Source of the DNA: a virus
Length of the DNA stretch: 39,538 nt
Direction: 5' to 3' (one strand)
IMG/VR virus record: IMGVR_UViG_3300042922_000233
Location: 1 to 39,538 of that record
The translations under genes were made by a program, and so were the position numbers. A model generated the notes under the pieces. It did not search any database and was not told where the DNA came from. It worked only from the letters and a program-made list of their open reading frames with translations. Shown piece after piece: positions 6,257 through 14,189 of this stretch. How positions within the stretch are numbered: position 1 is the first letter of the stretch; each line of letters opens with the position of its first letter.

Positions 6257-6943
6257 TTACATTACTAATTGAGCATTAGCATCCGTGACCTCTTCAAATA
6301 ACACCAGAGGAAGTGTATATGCTTCTATTACCTTAACCGCCTTATCTGTCTGTGATCTCTTAATAGCCTTGTATGTATCAATCCCAAACTGTCGGCGGAG
6401 TTCTCGGTGGATATCGGAATATACCTTTCCGCGAAGGGATTTGTCTTTGTAGGCATTAGAGTCTTTACCGCCTAAGCAGCTTACGCCTTTTTTCTTGATT
6501 GCCGATGTGATCCGGCTCTCTTCGATTCCGAGGATAGGCATGTCCATCTTGAAGGCCTGTAGATCATCGTTGACGGAATCAACCTTTTGGCTTACTTCAA
6601 GAGTTGCATTTTTTAATATGTCTAGGTATGATGTCGGCGCTTTTAATTTATCTTCCATATCATGGAACCGGTTAATATACTTCGCGGTGAATACTGCACC
6701 TTTAACACCGGTAAGTTTGTTAGCTATGAACTCGCAACCTTTCTTTGTAACCATGTAGCATGGAAGCGTTTTATTCTGATCGCTTTGGTAAGTACTTTCT
6801 GTAAAGAAATCGGTGAGGGAGATTTTCCCCTCTCCTAATTGTTCAGAATATCTTCTGATATCTTTCAATAAATCGTTATGAGGTTTCTCAACCATTTCTG
6901 CTACCTCTACTGATGTTAATGATTTTTGTTCTAATTGATTCAA
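6257..6943 (-). CDS. Rha-family phage regulatory protein / antirepressor-like
   Basis: 228 aa. The N-terminal LTSVEVAEMVEKPHNDLLKDIRRY is the typical Rha signature. Confidence 0.7.
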   Translation of the reverse strand: MNQLEQKSLTSVEVAEMVEKPHNDLLKDIRRYSEQLGEGKISLTDFFTESTYQSDQNKTLPCYMVTKKGCEFIANKLTGVKGAVFTAKYINRFHDMEDKLKAPTSYLDILKNATLEVSQKVDSVNDDLQAFKMDMPILGIEESRITSAIKKKGVSCLGGKDSNAYKDKSLRGKVYSDIHRELRRQFGIDTYKAIKRSQTDKAVKVIEAYTLPLVLFEEVTDANAQLVM

Positions 6944-7544: not shown

Positions 7545-7778
7545 TCAGGGTAAAAAAATTTCTTCTATCTTTAATGGTGCTTGTCCCTCCTTTGCACGTT
7601 TTTTATTGAAAGCTGCTTGTATAATTAGCATTTCTCTTAAACTAATATCAGCTTTCCCATTTTCTTTAGAGCAATAATAGGATTTCTTGCACCCGATTAG
7701 AGTAGCTACATCTTCCTGCCTTAAATGTAAAACGCTTCTCCAATACTTAAGTTTATGTAGTTTGGTGTCGTTTCTCAA
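7545..7778 (-). CDS. Cro-like XRE-family HTH regulator
   Basis: 77 aa. LRQEDVATLIGCKKSYYCSKENGK is an HTH. It is divergent from the CI-like gene and is the first gene of the leftward operon. Confidence 0.7.
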   Translation of the reverse strand: MRNDTKLHKLKYWRSVLHLRQEDVATLIGCKKSYYCSKENGKADISLREMLIIQAAFNKKRAKEGQAPLKIEEIFLP

Positions 7779-7820
7779 TATTATTGTACCCTCCTTCCAT
7801 TGTTTGTCTATATGTTGTGT

Positions 7821-7837
7821 CGTTCACTATTCGCAAC
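7821..7837. promoter_or_regulatory. Operator-like 17-mer CGTTCACTATTCGCAAC, proximal copy (immediately downstream of the leftward -10)
   Basis: Perfect identity with 7526..7542. It lies between the TATACT -10 and the cro-like RBS. Confidence 0.55.
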
Positions 7838-7846
7838 CACAAGTTG

Positions 7847-7875
7847 AGTATAGGCCCCTTTTTTTTATTTGTCAA
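7847..7875 (-). promoter_or_regulatory. Leftward early promoter (TTGACA-17-TATACT)
   Basis: The reverse complement of 7870-7875 is TTGACA, the spacer is 17 nt, and the reverse complement of 7847-7852 is TATACT. Confidence 0.6.
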
Positions 7876-7885
7876 CAACTTTTTG

Positions 7886-7914
7886 TTGCAAATAATAAAC
7901 TTTTTTGATATTAT
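7886..7914 (+). promoter_or_regulatory. Rightward repressor/integrase promoter (TTGCAA-17-TATTAT)
   Basis: TTGCAA at 7886-7891, a 17-nt spacer, and TATTAT at 7909-7914. It sits back-to-back with the leftward promoter. Confidence 0.5.
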
Positions 7915-7963
7915 TGTAACAGAATAAGAAACGATACTAAATGAAGAGAAGGAGTTATATAAA

Positions 7964-8281
7964 ATGAACGAGTTTGGAAAACGTCTTAAAATGTTAAGGG
8001 ATGATCGCGATTTATCCATGTCAAAGTTGGCGGAAGCGGTTGGGTCAACCAAATCAGCCCTTTCTAGATATGAAAATGGTACCATGGATCCCGGCCTTAA
8101 GGTGTTAATTAAACTCGCTGACTACTTCGGTGTTACTTTGGACTGGATTGCTGGTAACGGCGATATAAACGATGTTCAATATTCAGACAAAGAAAAGTAC
8201 TTCGCTGCTATAAATGAATGTATTAAGGAAGAAATTAGTCCGGATAAACTAGTACAAATTATAAAAATAATAAAAGGATAG
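7964..8281 (+). CDS. CI-like XRE-family HTH repressor
   Basis: 105 aa. LKMLRDDRDLSMSKLAEAVGSTKSALSRYENG is a classic XRE HTH. GGAG lies upstream, and the gene is upstream of the integrase. Confidence 0.75.
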   Translation: MNEFGKRLKMLRDDRDLSMSKLAEAVGSTKSALSRYENGTMDPGLKVLIKLADYFGVTLDWIAGNGDINDVQYSDKEKYFAAINECIKEEISPDKLVQIIKIIKG

Positions 8282-8527: not shown

Positions 8528-9694
8528 ATGGATGCAACTTATTATCAGAGAGAATCTGACGGGAAATGGGTTGGGGCAATAGAAAACGGTAAAAAGCCCA
8601 ATGGGCAAAGAAACCGTATTGTTAGATATGGGAAAACAAAAAAAGAAGTTGAGGCTAAGATTAATGTAATACTATACGAACTGCAAACAGGTCAGTACAT
8701 TGCACCTGTTAAAGATACATTTATTGGGTATCTTAATGAATACTATAAAATATCTATTGATAATTGGGAAGATACAACCGCTGATTTATACCGCATGTAT
8801 ATTGATGTTCATTTTGCTCCATATTTCAAAGACATGAAGCTCATAGATATAAAACCTATAACTCTGGATACCTTTTATAACTACAAAATGAAAGAACCAA
8901 GGAAATACATCGTGATGATTAAGGGAAAACCAAAAGATAAACTGGCGAAACCTTTAAGCATCAATACTGCAAGAAAATTAAATTCATTTATAAAGTCCGC
9001 ATTTAAATATGCGGTTGTTAATGAATTGATAAAAAGTAACCCTGCTGAAAAAGTAAAACTTGGCAAAAAGACTAAGTATCTTCCGACTGTTTATAATGAA
9101 GAACAGTTTCTAAAGCTTTTGGACTATGTATTTGGTTCTGATGATGAAATACCTATAATACTTGGTGGAGGCTGCGGTTTAAGAAGGGGAGAAATATTTG
9201 GCCTTTACTGGAGAAATATCGATTTAGTAACTGGTTATATAACTATTAAACAAACAGCGGTAAGATTTAAGAAAAATCTAGAAAAGGATCCTAAAAATGA
9301 TAGCAGCGTGAGATCATTTAAGATTCCAAAATATGTGCTAGAAACTTTAATATATTATAAAAAGAAGTATAACGGAAAAGCAAATCAAAAAGTTATTACA
9401 AGGTGGAAGCCTGGAAGTTATTCTGAACGTTTCGGAAAATTACTATTGAAATTCGATTTACCTCATATCAGGCTGCATGATTTAAGACACTATAATGCAG
9501 TGATTATGTGTAAATATGGTGTATCTGATAAAGTCGCAGCCGAACGTCTAGGGCATTCACAAGTCAGTACTCTTAGAAATGTATATCAGCATGTTTTGCA
9601 AGATATGGATCAGACAGCTGCCGACGAAATTGACGCAATGTTTTTAAAACAAAAAGAAAAGGATGACAAAAAGGCGGCTTTTAAAATCGTGTAG
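8528..9694 (+). CDS. int: Tyrosine recombinase (phage integrase)
   Basis: 388 aa. It has an arm-binding N-terminus, GLRRGE (Arg), HDLRH (HxxR), and GHSQVSTLRNVYQHV (His...Tyr). Confidence 0.9.
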   Translation: MDATYYQRESDGKWVGAIENGKKPNGQRNRIVRYGKTKKEVEAKINVILYELQTGQYIAPVKDTFIGYLNEYYKISIDNWEDTTADLYRMYIDVHFAPYFKDMKLIDIKPITLDTFYNYKMKEPRKYIVMIKGKPKDKLAKPLSINTARKLNSFIKSAFKYAVVNELIKSNPAEKVKLGKKTKYLPTVYNEEQFLKLLDYVFGSDDEIPIILGGGCGLRRGEIFGLYWRNIDLVTGYITIKQTAVRFKKNLEKDPKNDSSVRSFKIPKYVLETLIYYKKKYNGKANQKVITRWKPGSYSERFGKLLLKFDLPHIRLHDLRHYNAVIMCKYGVSDKVAAERLGHSQVSTLRNVYQHVLQDMDQTAADEIDAMFLKQKEKDDKKAAFKIV

Positions 9695-11138: not shown

Positions 11139-11435
11139 ATGGGATATAATAGTGAAAAAATAGGGCATAGAATATTCACGGCAAGAAACCACGCTGGCAT
11201 GAAACAATCTACTTTGAGCGATATAGCCGGGATTAGCCAGGCATCATTGTCTAATGCAGAGAATGGGGTTTTTAATTTACGGGTAGCAACCATATATAAA
11301 ATAGCCGAAGCTCTTGGGGTATCTGTTTCATGGATTTTAGGGGAGGACGGAAGCTTTGGCAATCTTGATATGAATGACGAAGAGATGCTTGAACTAAAGA
11401 AATATGCAGACTACATAATTAGCAAGAGAAAATAA
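11139..11435 (+). CDS. XRE-family HTH regulator (98 aa)
   Basis: MKQSTLSDIAGISQASLSNAENG is an HTH. The C-terminal EEMLELKKYADYII tail is typical of small Gram-positive mobile-element repressors. Confidence 0.7.
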   Translation: MGYNSEKIGHRIFTARNHAGMKQSTLSDIAGISQASLSNAENGVFNLRVATIYKIAEALGVSVSWILGEDGSFGNLDMNDEEMLELKKYADYIISKRK

Positions 11436-11646
11436 GCTTTTATCCACATGGATTTAGGCTTTTATGCACTTTGTACACAACTATTGTAATTTATCTCCTT
11501 TATGCCAACTATACAAAATATACCGGTCAGGTTATAATAAAGGAGTCTTGGAGAGACAGTTGGTATTATTGGATGTAATAGATATTAAAGAACGGACGGG
11601 AACCCTGTGCTGCTGCATGGGGTTTTCGATATTAAGGAGAATGATA

Positions 11647-11883
11647 ATGAATACACCTATAGCTGTAAAAGCCGCCTTTTCCATCACGGGAGAAGTGAAA
11701 CCACTGTACGTGCAATTAGAGGATGAAGTATTTAAAATACATGAAATAGAGTACAGCAAAGAAGAAATCTATGTTGGTATAGCAACTATCTTGTTTTGCT
11801 GTTATATAGAGCGGAATGGCCAGCCGGAAAGGATTAAGATTAGGTTCCATCGTAATACAACACAATGGGTATTGATAAAATAG
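11647..11883 (+). CDS. Hypothetical protein (78 aa)
   Basis: AAGGAGA lies 6 nt before the ATG at 11647. The longer track ORF (from 11464) has no RBS and a non-protein-like N-terminus. Confidence 0.5.
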   Translation: MNTPIAVKAAFSITGEVKPLYVQLEDEVFKIHEIEYSKEEIYVGIATILFCCYIERNGQPERIKIRFHRNTTQWVLIK

Positions 11884-11886
11884 CCC

Positions 11887-11913
11887 CGGTCATTACTGGC
11901 CGAGGTTATTTTT
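11887..11913 (+). terminator. Possible terminator (CGGTCA-TTAC-TGGCCG, then T-rich tract)
   Basis: 6-bp stem with one G-U pair, followed by aggTTATTTTT. Confidence 0.35.
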
Positions 11914-12094
11914 ATAATCTGGATATCTTCTCTTCTATTGCCTCAATAAAATATTGGTTTAGGCTCACGCCTGCTTCTTCTGCAGCTTCTCTATAACGCT
12001 TCATGTCTTCTTTGGGAGCCCTAACCTTTGTTTCTCCAATATTGTCTAAATATTTCTTAACGGCTCTTGCTTGTGCCTCTGTATATTTTCCCAT
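11912..12094 (-). CDS. Ribbon-helix-helix (Arc/CopG-like) DNA-binding protein
   Basis: 60 aa. TKVRAPKEDMKRYREAAEEAGVSLNQYFIEAIEEKI fits a beta-strand/helix/helix RHH pattern, including the SLNQYI..AI signature. Confidence 0.6.
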   Translation of the reverse strand: MGKYTEAQARAVKKYLDNIGETKVRAPKEDMKRYREAAEEAGVSLNQYFIEAIEEKISRL

Positions 12095-12129
12095 AAGCTC
12101 ACTCCTTTTTTATAGTATATCAAATACGT

Positions 12130-12209
12130 ATCTATGGGTATATATATAATATTCACAATCTATGGGGATATATTTTGTGAAATATACCTATTGTATCTAT
12201 GGGTATATA
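12130..12209. promoter_or_regulatory. Three direct 15-bp repeats ATCTATGGG(T/G)ATATA (12130-12144, 12158-12172, 12195-12209): putative RHH operators
   Basis: Copies 1 and 3 are identical and copy 2 differs at one base. They lie in the divergent intergenic region, and copy 3 fills the spacer of the rightward promoter. Confidence 0.6.
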
Positions 12210-12219
12210 GATATATAAT
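12191..12219 (+). promoter_or_regulatory. Promoter TTGTAT-17-TATAAT for the three-gene orphan operon
   Basis: TTGTAT at 12191-12196 and TATAAT at 12214-12219. Confidence 0.5.
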
Positions 12220-12261
12220 AACATCATAAGGAACAGCAAATAACAAATGGAGGTTGAGGAT

Positions 12262-12459
12262 ATGAAGTATATTGGAATGGTAAGATTTTCAGCTACACTT
12301 AAACAGGGACATAATATCAATATGTGTAGCACTCAAACAGTTGAAGCAAACGACAGAGAAGAAGCGATTAGTAAGATTAAAGAAATTATAAAAAACAAAT
12401 ATAGCGATGCTGAGTTTCCGTCTTATAAACCATTTTCTTATTGTAAACCAGTTAAATAA
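12262..12459 (+). CDS. Hypothetical protein (65 aa)
   Basis: GGAGG lies 8 nt before the ATG at 12262. Confidence 0.5.
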   Translation: MKYIGMVRFSATLKQGHNINMCSTQTVEANDREEAISKIKEIIKNKYSDAEFPSYKPFSYCKPVK

Positions 12460-12504
12460 TCACATGGTTTCCGGTCATCCTTAAACCGGAGAAAGGAGGC
12501 ATCA

Positions 12505-12699
12505 ATGAAATATTTTGAAGTACTTTATAAAAACTGCATAGGAACAAATCTTATAGCATTAGTCGCAACTCAACATGAGAATCCAACAATACCAACTGTA
12601 GCCTTTGACTTCGGATGGAATGGTAACCGGATTATAGATTATAAAGAAACAGATTTCAGCAGCTATAGAGCCAATAGCAAAAGATTTTTCAAAGCATAA
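12505..12699 (+). CDS. Hypothetical protein (64 aa)
   Basis: GAAAGGAGG lies 6 nt before the ATG. Confidence 0.55.
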   Translation: MKYFEVLYKNCIGTNLIALVATQHENPTIPTVAFDFGWNGNRIIDYKETDFSSYRANSKRFFKA

Positions 12700-12735
12700 A
12701 CTTTGGCACCAGCAAGGGCAGGAAGGAAGGGTTTT

Positions 12736-12939
12736 ATGAAAGTTAAAGATCTATTAGCGGTTATACAAGATGATGAGACAGTCTGCATTGAAAACAAAGA
12801 ATATGAGTGTCTTGAAATAAATGGTAAAAAGTACTTAAGTAATAGGTTTATGGAAAATGATGTTGCCTGCTGCTTCGGAGAAAGATACAAAGCGTTATGC
12901 ACTATCGGAACAACAATCATTATAAATATCCCCGTCTGA
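12736..12939 (+). CDS. Hypothetical Cys-rich protein (67 aa)
   Basis: AGGAAGGAAGG precedes the ATG at 12736. The protein has 6 Cys. Confidence 0.5.
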   Translation: MKVKDLLAVIQDDETVCIENKEYECLEINGKKYLSNRFMENDVACCFGERYKALCTIGTTIIINIPV

Positions 12940-12951
12940 TGATGGCTGTCT

Positions 12952-13029
12952 GGGCGGCAGTCGAAACCTCCACAAGGGAGGTCACGGGAACCCGTCGGCT
13001 TAGTGGGAAATCGCCGCCACTTTTATTAT
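12952..13029 (+). terminator. GC-rich multi-hairpin element ending in a T-tract (complex terminator or small structured RNA)
   Basis: The outer stem GGCGGC (12953-12958) / GCCGCC (13013-13018) encloses ACCTCC-ACAAG-GGAGGT and ACGG-GAAC-CCGT hairpins. It is followed by ACTTTTATTAT. Confidence 0.45.
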
Positions 13030-13101
13030 AGATTGTACTTTGATAATTGGATAGGCTCCCTTACCTCGTATTTAAGCCAGAGAGCCTTTATATTGTTGTG
13101 G

Positions 13102-13761
13102 TCAAGCTAATTTACCAAGTAATGCCTTTAAAGCCGTAGAACCGAGAGACCCACTGGTTACATCACTATACTTTCTACTTGCTCGGAATGCATTAACAGC
13201 CGCTATAGTTCCATTACCCCATAATCCATCTACTTTAATTCCTAAAGCTGTCTGGATTGCTTTCGTGACATATGTAGTAGTATGCTTCGAATCAAATACC
13301 GCCTTGAAGTCTCCATTAACTTGAAAATGAGGACTATCCGGTGTGGTTTTCCAGTTAGCTCCCGGCTCAAATCCATATTTCTGCATCGTCTTGATGATGA
13401 TCTGAGTCTGAGGGTCTTTAGTATTATAAATAGCTGTCATTTTACCCTTTACTAGTCGTTGGGGTACTACGTCCACGGCCTTACGCTGGATATGTATGCT
13501 ATCAAGGGTCCATGTCTTTTTACCTACTGATGTATTACAGTATGCTTTTGCAAACACACTACCAATTCCTTTGGTTGTACACTCAGCTATCGTGCGTCCC
13601 TGGCAGTATAAATAATGCTGTCTATCTAAAGGCCTGTATGTCTCCGTTACAAGAGGATTTACGCCTTGCTTGCGGATATCAGCCAAAGCCAGATCGAGCA
13701 TTATACGCACTAATACATTTAATTCTGTTACATCTCTGCAGCTTACCGTAACATTACTCAT
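13102..13761 (-). CDS. Endolysin: M15 (VanY/L-Ala-D-Glu peptidase-like) zinc peptidase with C-terminal PG_binding_1 domain
   Basis: 219 aa. TETYRPLDRQ, SIHIQRKAVDV (SxHxxxxAxD) and DSPHFQ are present. The C-terminal LGIKVDGLWGNGTIAAVNAF is a peptidoglycan-binding repeat. The gene overlaps the holin stop. Confidence 0.8.
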   Translation of the reverse strand: MSNVTVSCRDVTELNVLVRIMLDLALADIRKQGVNPLVTETYRPLDRQHYLYCQGRTIAECTTKGIGSVFAKAYCNTSVGKKTWTLDSIHIQRKAVDVVPQRLVKGKMTAIYNTKDPQTQIIIKTMQKYGFEPGANWKTTPDSPHFQVNGDFKAVFDSKHTTTYVTKAIQTALGIKVDGLWGNGTIAAVNAFRASRKYSDVTSGSLGSTALKALLGKLA

Positions 13762-14189
13762 TTGGTGCCCTCCTCCGCTTTGCTCTTCAACACATCAATG
13801 GCATTCTTTAATATCTTAGGATAATCAATCCCCATTAATCCTCCATTCTCTAAAATAGATACTGCTTCGTTCGCCGCGAATCCTATAACCACCGTATTAC
13901 GCACAATCTCAGTACCAGTAAGCTTATCTATCTGAGCAGCTACAAGAACATAGAGCAGGATCATGCATTTCTTACACAATCCCTTGAATCCTGCCCTGCT
14001 TTCTAACGCTCCGTTCTCTGTTTTAGTTGATTTCTTAAACACCCCGGCTACAACAAGCCCAGTTATGTAATCAACCGCCATGAAGATAATTAAAGTCTGC
14101 AATGCTAAGTCCCACCCCCCAAGCGCCTGCGCTATGATACTGCCAATTAGTCCGAATACTCCGAATATTGCATTATGTTTCATAATCAA
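13758..14189 (-). CDS. Holin (TcdE / phage_holin_4-like, 3 TM)
   Basis: 143 aa. FMAVDYITGLVVAG...GFKGLCKK is the family signature. It lies immediately upstream of the endolysin. Confidence 0.8.
   Translation of the reverse strand: MIMKHNAIFGVFGLIGSIIAQALGGWDLALQTLIIFMAVDYITGLVVAGVFKKSTKTENGALESRAGFKGLCKKCMILLYVLVAAQIDKLTGTEIVRNTVVIGFAANEAVSILENGGLMGIDYPKILKNAIDVLKSKAEEGTK

Follow-up and report, generated by a model that had tools for sequence, protein, structure and literature searches.

A probable repressor-controlled cassette of exchangeable small genes, closed by a predicted hammerhead ribozyme, in a temperate phage

What holds three very small genes together with a dedicated regulator between the integration and lysis genes of a temperate phage, and what might such genes do there? 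The question is raised by a locus in IMG/VR record IMGVR_UViG_3300042922_000233, whose 39,538 bp (hereafter the window) are the whole virus record and represent a complete temperate phage genome, the call of completeness being made because of its direct terminal repeats. In this genome a gene for a ribbon-helix-helix (RHH) protein diverges from an operon of three small open reading frames (ORF1-3), an arrangement that the first-pass annotation, made from the sequence alone, had put forward as a candidate anti-defence or exclusion cassette. Comparison with related loci indicates with high confidence that the locus is a regulated cassette with swappable cargo. The fuller reading, to which we give an even chance, is that of a temperate-phage accessory cassette in which unrelated small genes are exchanged within a conserved non-coding frame and kept under the control of a repressor. 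This frame would comprise a divergent, autoregulated RHH gene, three cognate sites of 14-15 bp, a leader, a linker with a hairpin and a Shine-Dalgarno sequence (SD), and a hammerhead ribozyme with a terminator-like tail.

The regulator is encoded on the minus strand (11912-12094) as a protein of 60 amino acids (aa) that belongs to the RHH (Arc/MetJ) superfamily and is here called type A. As had been proposed, it is an Arc/CopG-like RHH protein whose gene diverges from the operon of three ORFs, and it scores above the cut-off for the HicB-type RHH family PF05534 of Pfam (25.6 bits, cut-off 21). Its similarity to Arc of phage P22 is weak (E 0.03, residues 18-57), and nine relatives all share the residues G42 and S44 of the G-x-S/T/N turn that joins its helices. 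Related genes with 68-82% identity were found in five loci: L004, L005 and L006 by scanning IMG/VR with the RHH protein, L009 by scanning with the middle site described below, and L013 by scanning a genome collection with a two-site pattern, which revealed the module in a metagenome-assembled genome (MAG) of Anaerocolumna sp. These five loci and the window form the type A set of six. A candidate from a two-operator scan of metagenomes (L014) was discarded as a false positive caused by a tandem repeat. Across the relatives, non-synonymous divergence (dN) of the RHH gene is 0.07-0.27 and synonymous divergence (dS) is saturated, with dN/dS of 0.04-0.10 where it could be computed. The putative promoter of the gene is an extended -10 element on the minus strand (12122 to 12114, TGATATACT; TGATATAAT in L009 and L013), 7 of whose 9 columns are invariant in the six loci.

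Between the divergent genes, the three 15-bp direct repeats and the TTGTAT-17-TATAAT promoter with the third repeat in its spacer, as first described, were all recovered at their positions. The plus-strand copies, with the consensus TCTATGGGKATATA, start at 12130, 12158 and 12195. The first (O1, 12130-12144, ATCTATGGGTATATA) is located just upstream of the -10 element of the RHH gene, in the -35 zone of that promoter, the second (O2, 12158-12172, ATCTATGGGGATATA) is followed by a conserved TTTTGTG, and the third (O3, 12195-12209, ATCTATGGGTATATA) falls within the spacer of the putative cargo promoter (12192-12220, +; -35 TTGTAT at 12192-12197, a 17-nt spacer, -10 TATAAT at 12215-12220). O2 is 28 and 37 bp away from its neighbours. 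No further match with up to 2 mismatches occurs in the 39.5 kb, for which 0.39 matches are expected by chance, and only 1 of 100 shuffled sequences reached three. All five relatives keep the three sites, each at the same distance from the RHH start as in the window. Over the six loci, 39 of 42 columns of the core sites are invariant (13/14 in O1 and 13/14 in O2, plus 6/7 in the TTTTGTG stretch) vs. 8 of 28 in the two spacers; because synonymous sites of the RHH gene are saturated, this shows that the sites are kept by selection and not by recent common descent. The hexamers of the cargo promoter drift in the relatives (TTTACA/TATACT, TTGCAA/TACAAT), and its 17-nt spacing is kept through small indels. 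Each site contains a partial dyad, TCTAT-N4-ATATA, to which two RHH dimers might bind in the manner of Arc. A partial inverted copy (ATATACCTAT, 12182-12191) was considered as a further site and dropped, as it is not conserved in the relatives. The promoter is followed by a 5' leader with an SD (12221-12261, +), which is common to cassettes with another regulator (L024, L017) or other cargo (L005). The intergenic length of 152 bp given in the first-pass annotation is correct only up to an ATG at 12247; this ATG is part of the conserved leader, and a start at 12262 is likelier.

The regulator and its sites also change together. L024, found via the linker element, has the same leader (AACATCATAAGGAACAGCAAATAA), promoter layout and extended -10 as the window, and its RHH protein is of a second type (type B, also in L015 and L021) with 37-45% identity to type A (45% between L024 and the window). 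The two types are alike in the C-terminal helix and unlike through the N-terminal half, where the DNA-reading strand is located. At positions equivalent to O1-O3, the intergenic region of L024 contains three copies of a different, palindromic 17-bp site (TATACTAACGTTAGTAT). This co-variation of regulator and sites is the best evidence available without experiment, and it argues that the repeats are the operators of the RHH protein. The regulatory reading of RHH gene, sites and promoter, with binding and repression as predicted activities, thus holds and is now much stronger, because the three stay together in five other loci and because a second RHH type is paired with a different triple site. 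Among loci closed by the ribozyme described below, the divergent regulator can be an RHH protein of either type, an AbrB-like protein (L017) or a helix-turn-helix (HTH) protein (L018, L020). In L017 (1-177, -, and 348-1584, +), an AbrB/SpoVT-like regulator replaces the RHH protein next to the same leader, linker and hammerhead.

While the regulatory part is conserved, the cargo is exchanged completely. All-against-all BLASTP detected no homology between the cargo sets of the six type A loci, which encode proteins of 65/64/67 aa in the window, 111/95/528 aa and further ones in L004, about 60/98 aa in L005, 60/58 aa in L006, 139/83/160 aa in L009 and 87/56/51 aa in L013. Hydrophobic segments are absent from all of these proteins, and almost none matches a known family. 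The argument from architecture made at first reading was thus borne out in one respect, a conserved RHH gene being accompanied in all six loci by entirely different small genes. Exchange has taken place at sharp junctions: L005 and L017 have the leader in common up to the start codon (ATGGAGGTTGAGGATATG), and at the far end the cargo stops a few bases from the next conserved element. A convergent endolysin gene adjoins the cassette in 5 of the 6 loci, and these endolysins are of different types. The third cassette gene of L004 (609-2195, -), which encodes the protein of 528 aa, is similar to a PHROG with a primase annotation (E 7e-82); either the socket can carry large genes or this gene may belong to another unit.

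The free exchange of cargo bears on whether the locus could be a toxin-antitoxin module, in which the RHH protein, named after HicB, would be the antitoxin and one of the small ORFs the toxin; toxin modules had also been mentioned in the first-pass annotation. The name of the best Pfam match, the small size of the genes and weak matches to RelB/VapB-antitoxin-like NCBIfam models fit such a module, but the latter are far below their cut-offs and the match to PF05534 covers only the C-terminal RHH part of the profile, the 60-aa protein lacking the N-terminal domain of HicB. HicA (PF07927) is absent from the whole phage, while control genomes respond to the search. Furthermore, the antitoxin gene would be divergent instead of co-transcribed, and the cargo is interchangeable while the RHH gene stays. 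We consider a toxin module very improbable. A split HicB, with ORF1 as N-terminal and the RHH protein as C-terminal domain, was also rejected, as the matches of ORF1 are to a common fold (Z 4-7) and HicA is missing; HicB is also absent from the 50 best folds for the ORF1 model, which by itself carries little weight.

The cargo of the window consists of ORF1 (12262-12459, +; 65 aa, basic with an isoelectric point (pI) of 9.2, GGAGG 8 nt upstream), ORF2 (12505-12699, +; 64 aa, AAAGGAGG 5 nt upstream) and ORF3 (12736-12939, +; 67 aa, acidic with a pI of 4.8, GGAAGGAAGGG upstream). The sizes and SDs previously noted are thus present, although the SD of ORF3 is weaker than "good" would imply. A view of the region as a non-coding regulatory or RNA locus, in which ORF1-3 are not genes, could draw on its richness in conserved non-coding elements and on ORF1, for which no relative was found in 5.8 billion proteins, in IMG/VR (pattern scans) or in GenBank phages (tblastn). 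Against this, the three ORFs show phage-like codon usage in frame only (log-odds of 0.24-0.28 per codon, compared to 0.20-0.43 for long phage genes, and negative values in all other frames), SDs are present, ORF2 and ORF3 belong to conserved families, and fold predictions for ORF1 and ORF3 are confident. By their codon usage they are real phage genes, and a purely non-coding locus is highly unlikely. The label "orphan" accordingly remains appropriate for ORF1 and does not apply to ORF2 and ORF3, which have small families of their own.

ORF2 is 56-73% identical to its relatives, and the family keeps the first ten residues and a WNGN motif without change. Its relative in L002 and L003 is found in a run of small genes beside genes for a RadC-like JAB protein and a DUF4121 protein, a neighbourhood that resembles, as a weak association, the entry regions of mobile elements. 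The run in L002 (3604-5430, +) ends in the RadC-like JAB gene, and this element may be conjugative or phage-plasmid-like. For ORF3, exhaustive HMMER searches identified six small relatives (P0007 and P0009-P0013), and nothing was found in GenBank phages by tblastn or in IMG/VR by pattern scans; a further match of 2252 aa (P0008) is spurious, being a low-complexity beta-helix repeat protein. The fold check that had been recommended, run on ORF1 and ORF3, yielded confident models and no informative match among solved structures. The AlphaFold2 model of ORF1, calculated without an alignment, has a predicted local distance difference test score (pLDDT) of 84 and a beta-beta-alpha-beta topology. 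Its structural neighbours, among them ribosomal eL20/LX (Z 7.2), T7 Gp2 and phage p56 (Z 4.4-4.5) and, also within the 50 best, PurS, suggest only a common small fold. The ORF3 model (pLDDT 92.9) has no fold match among solved structures in the PDB (best Z 3.9) and resembles dozens of uncharacterised phage proteins in BFVD with TM-scores of 0.7-0.8, so that it appears to represent a phage-specific small fold without a solved member. This fold recurs in phage proteins of 60-80 aa, at least five of them in the uncultured myovirus ctAca11 and others in phages of Lactococcus, Enterococcus and Bacillus. A protein atlas offered weak leads, to DUF3903 (0.87) and to unnamed viral clusters (0.91).

Two non-coding elements, neither of them mentioned in the first-pass annotation, complete the frame; both were detected by blastn against the window as blocks conserved in related loci with unrelated cargo. 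The first is a linker between ORF1 and ORF2 (12467-12500, +, GUUUCCGGUCAUCCUUAAACCGGAGAAAGGAGG) that contains a hairpin and the SD of ORF2. It recurs almost unchanged over 33 nt in L005 and L013 and is also present in L017 and L024, each time separating unrelated cistrons. In its minimum-energy fold UUUCC pairs with the GGAGG of the SD, so that the fold can mask the SD of the following gene; the linker may couple the translation of successive cistrons.

The second element closes the operon and is most probably a genuine hammerhead motif of type I (12931-12988, +), with self-cleavage predicted between 12983 and 12984. Helix I (CCCGU/ACGGG, 12931-35/12984-88) has 5 pairs and is followed by CUGAUGA (12936-42), an extra U after A9 (12943), helix II (12944-50/12956-62), GAAA (12963-66), helix III (12966-71/12977-82, closed by an A-U pair) and C17 (12983). 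The last codons of ORF3 are part of the ribozyme, the ORF3 stop codon being located inside CUGAUGA. A conserved 3' tail (12989-13030, +) continues with a hairpin (P4, CGGC 12996-99/GCCG 13013-16) and CACUUUUAUUAU. In addition, CCC (12991-93) of the tail may form a pseudoknot with GGG (12952-54) of loop II; both are invariant, and this helix is paired in 94% of cases.

All nucleotides expected of a hammerhead core are present (C3 U4 G5 A6 N7 G8 A9, G12 A13 A14, the A15.1-U16.1 pair and an H17 that is not G), and in an alignment of 12 sequences the core is invariant except at N7 (U/C) and H17 (C/A), a variation that the consensus allows. A hammerhead descriptor matches once in the window and not at all in 200 shuffled genomes, and both the minimum-energy and the centroid fold of the isolated 63-nt core are the hammerhead secondary structure. 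Ten loci were retrieved from IMG/VR with a search pattern in which the core and helix I were prescribed and the remainder was left free. In the alignment, 94% of the cells are paired and 9 pairs show double changes, a level reached by 0 of 500 shuffles, with 30-46% of cells paired in slid controls; 7 of these pairs are in helices II and III, and P4 contributes one double change. For the P4 hairpin and the rest of the tail, roles in tertiary folding and termination can be proposed. The ribozyme is located directly 3' of the last small ORF of the operon in 8 of 9 further loci (L015-L017, L019-L023), while in L018, among the features listed, a called reading frame spans it. In most loci the capped operon faces the lysis genes.

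Three points speak against this assignment. Since the search pattern presets helix I and the core, only helices II and III, the pseudoknot and P4 provide independent covariation. Helix I is short, at 5 pairs, and an additional base interrupts the core. Finally, the hammerhead models of Rfam 15 give no match at the gathering threshold or at E 10 in the window and five related loci, and no element of the cassette matches any Rfam family. An extra nucleotide after A9 occurs naturally, and a U at this position reportedly makes cleavage faster (PMC3705267, citing De la Pena and Flores 2001). Many natural hammerheads need pseudoknots, and hammerheads are known to flank variable prophage genes (PMC3088659). 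The latter, described by Perreault et al. in 2011, resemble the present element in having an intact core beside short, non-constant gene blocks and a pseudoknot for stems I/II; they differ from it in that the ribozyme of the window is of type I, with the extra U between A9 and G10.1, a pseudoknot between loop II and the 3' tail, and no match to an Rfam 15 model, and in that its family caps repressor-controlled cassettes at the 3' end. A long GGCGGC/GCCGCC stem, which dominates the fold of 12928-13030, was rejected since it is not conserved (in L013, L016, L018, L020 and L021 only one of its sides is changed), and the fold of this region is no better than that of shuffled sequences (z -0.3 to -0.4). 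A covariance model built from the alignment identified a second, divergent hammerhead in L018 (7944-8049, -) with compensatory changes in helix I, and was positive in only 2 of 151 genomes sampled from the family of the Anaerocolumna MAG. In L006, a probably decayed hammerhead with a broken helix I occupies the same place after the cargo (2311-2429, -).

How could such a frame operate? We infer binding, repression, timing, cleavage and cargo function from the anatomy and from the systems cited here. When naked phage DNA enters a cell that contains no RHH protein, the cargo promoter, which is of the host sigma-A type, would fire at once. RHH protein made from the divergent promoter would then build up and fill O1-O3. 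Occupancy of O3 in the spacer would block RNA polymerase at the cargo promoter, occupancy of O1 would limit RHH synthesis itself, and O2 between the two promoters may aid cooperative filling, leaving cargo output low in the lysogen. Such a burst-then-repress logic seems somewhat more probable than its absence; it has been demonstrated for Aca (anti-CRISPR-associated) repressors of anti-CRISPR (acr) operons and for Reg of plasmid p576 (PMC13551039, PMC8708921). At the 3' end, the ribozyme would cut the transcript 44 nt beyond the ORF3 stop, and hammerhead and U-rich tail together would end the message 44-90 nt past ORF3. Cleavage could provide the cargo mRNA with a structured 3' terminus and release any read-through transcript, which would be antisense to the endolysin and holin genes. 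A ribosome terminating on the last cistron, whose stop codon is in or next to helix I, would be expected to delay folding of the ribozyme, and cleavage might in this way be linked to translation.

The nature of the cargo is harder to judge. Small, soluble, intracellular effectors of counter-defence or host takeover are our leading suggestion, though one held at somewhat less than even confidence. ORF1-3 have no match in Pfam, PHROGs, NCBIfam or PADLOC, and the suggestion is therefore read from the architecture of the locus, in which a conserved regulator is paired with variable cargo, the products are small and soluble and repression is predicted to be tight; published anti-defence operons under RHH control also favour it. 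Membrane-type exclusion, which the first-pass annotation had allowed for, is unlikely, given that no cargo protein has a hydrophobic segment. The cassette could also serve lysogenic conversion or defence, with the RHH protein holding prophage expression of its genes at a low level and the products protecting the lysogen from other phages or changing host physiology. A position between the lysis genes and attP/int is usual for prophage-expressed morons, an autoregulated repressor would be expected to give a steady low output, and the neighbouring HTH-headed unit, with lipoprotein or secreted cargo in relatives, fits exclusion functions in the same island. However, PADLOC detects no defence system in the cargo, whose products are tiny, soluble and without a membrane segment, and three operators, one of them in a promoter spacer, point to tight repression, the opposite of what constitutive protection needs. 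A conversion role is unlikely, though not negligible.

The proposed cassette can be compared with several known systems. Aca14, an RHH anti-CRISPR-associated regulator (Nucleic Acids Res 2026), controls transient anti-defence expression (PMC13551039). Like the regulator described here, it is a small RHH repressor acting on promoters of small, variable and mostly unannotated counter-defence operons, and it represses itself and neighbouring units. Unlike it, the aca14 gene is located within the acr operon and its product binds an inverted repeat over the -10, whereas the gene in the window is divergent with three direct, quasi-palindromic copies, and the cargo contains no known acr gene; the comparison was made by description. 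Of the acr-aca-like architecture claimed earlier, the conserved regulator with variable small genes was thus confirmed, and the placement of the regulator downstream of acr genes in the same operon was not. RHH-controlled transient anti-defence expression is also known from Reg of p576 and the establishment regulons of the pLS20 family (PMC8708921). Shared features are an autoregulated RHH protein in Bacillota, operators flanking promoters, transient establishment and anti-restriction genes expressed after DNA entry, and cargo replaced between relatives; p576 differs in being a conjugative plasmid with several regulated promoters and a recognisable ardC, and no ribozyme has been reported for it. 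The cassette also has the features of a phage moron, namely its own promoter and terminator-like end, a location between the lysis genes and int/attP, and a content that varies among relatives. Morons, in turn, lack the dedicated repressor with co-varying operators, the reusable linker and the ribozyme found here, and because of these features the cassette is better described as a fixed "socket" than as a one-off insertion.

The immI region of phage P22, in which the RHH gene is divergent from a silenced operon and the operator for the Mnt/Arc RHH repressors overlaps the promoter (Pant/Pmnt), offers a further parallel. Each repressor has a single operator there, and the cargo consists of arc and the antirepressor gene ant. 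The locus in the window could accordingly be a second immunity region, with the RHH protein in the role of Mnt/Arc and antirepressors or modulators of the lysis-lysogeny decision silenced in the lysogen. The weak match to Arc agrees with this view, as does the layout of a divergent RHH gene and an operator that overlaps the promoter, within the late half of the temperate phage genome, but phages with the same RHH protein and sites carry unrelated cargo, while an antirepressor should track its repressor, and three sites with interchangeable cargo take the place of one. Moreover, a gene of the Ant/Rha type is already present in the early operon (6257-6943), and no cargo protein resembles a known antirepressor in Pfam or PHROGs. 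An immunity region therefore seems improbable, and a cassette of exchangeable genes, perhaps for counter-defence or takeover, remains the favoured reading.

Several findings weigh against this reading. The -35 of the cargo promoter in the window is weak, agreeing with the consensus only in TTG, and a consensus scan missed the promoter. The cargo has no match to known anti-defence, defence or regulatory families in the four databases searched. The regulator is divergent and its sites are direct repeats, while aca genes are normally part of the acr operon and their products bind inverted repeats. Genes expressed from prophages, too, are typically found beside lysis genes and attP, and the type A module is rare, its sites being carried by one species genome and six viral contigs.

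Precedents thus exist for each ingredient: anti-defence operons with RHH regulators, Mnt/Arc of P22, phage morons, and hammerheads next to variable prophage genes. What is new is that they are combined in a single socket, that regulator and operators are exchanged together within one shared frame, that the linker is reusable, and that the type I hammerhead is of a variant not reported by Rfam 15. We tentatively propose, as a generalisation somewhat less secure than the counter-defence role itself, that temperate phages of Clostridia share a plug-and-play socket by their lysis genes, with interchangeable repressor/operator modules (two RHH types, AbrB-like, HTH) on a common leader, a reusable linker and a hammerhead cap, in which unrelated small counter-defence genes are swapped exactly at start and stop codons. 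To our knowledge, hardly any counter-defence genes are known from phages of gut Clostridia, since such genes are tiny, evolve fast and lack detectable homologues. The repressor with its operators, the leader, the linker and the ribozyme provide search handles that are independent of the cargo, and they led to about 40 different small cargo genes in 15 loci; if the proposal is correct, they would give access to a large unannotated anti-defence repertoire in gut phages. In addition, the natural swap of two RHH types with two operator sets is a ready-made test of how RHH proteins read DNA specifically. The ribozyme family is a case of hammerheads with an intact core escaping Rfam models, and its position would tie self-cleavage to the 3' end of an operon that is kept repressed and runs towards essential late genes.

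In the genome (annotated with Pfam and PHROGs), the cassette is part of an accessory region with the integrase and attP on one side and the endolysin and holin genes on the other. The lysogeny switch (7545-8281) consists of a cro-like HTH gene (-) and a gene for a CI-like HTH repressor (7964-8281, +), and is followed by the integrase gene (8528-9694). Holin and endolysin (13102-14189, -) adjoin the far end of the cassette, followed by tail and head genes on the same strand. ARAGORN found no complete tRNA in the window, and the window has no DNA match in phages. The Anaerocolumna sp. MAG is the one species genome with the same regulatory module, and the host is therefore probably a Clostridium of the Lachnospiraceae type. 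On its other flank, the RHH gene is separated from a convergent upstream operon (+; HTH gene 11139-11435, ORF 11464-11883) by a hairpin (11887-11902, unstranded) with a 6-pair stem and a T-run, which resembles a terminator and may act as one at the 3' end of the RHH gene. The coding score of the 139-aa ORF at 11464-11883 is close to zero, and the real gene is therefore probably shorter. This HTH-headed unit (11139-11883, +) is also a variable socket, with counterparts in L004 (3346-4583), L005 (3338-4585) and L024 (1647-2485) that begin with homologous HTH genes of 95-98 aa and continue with differing cargo, including lipoproteins and secreted proteins in the relatives.

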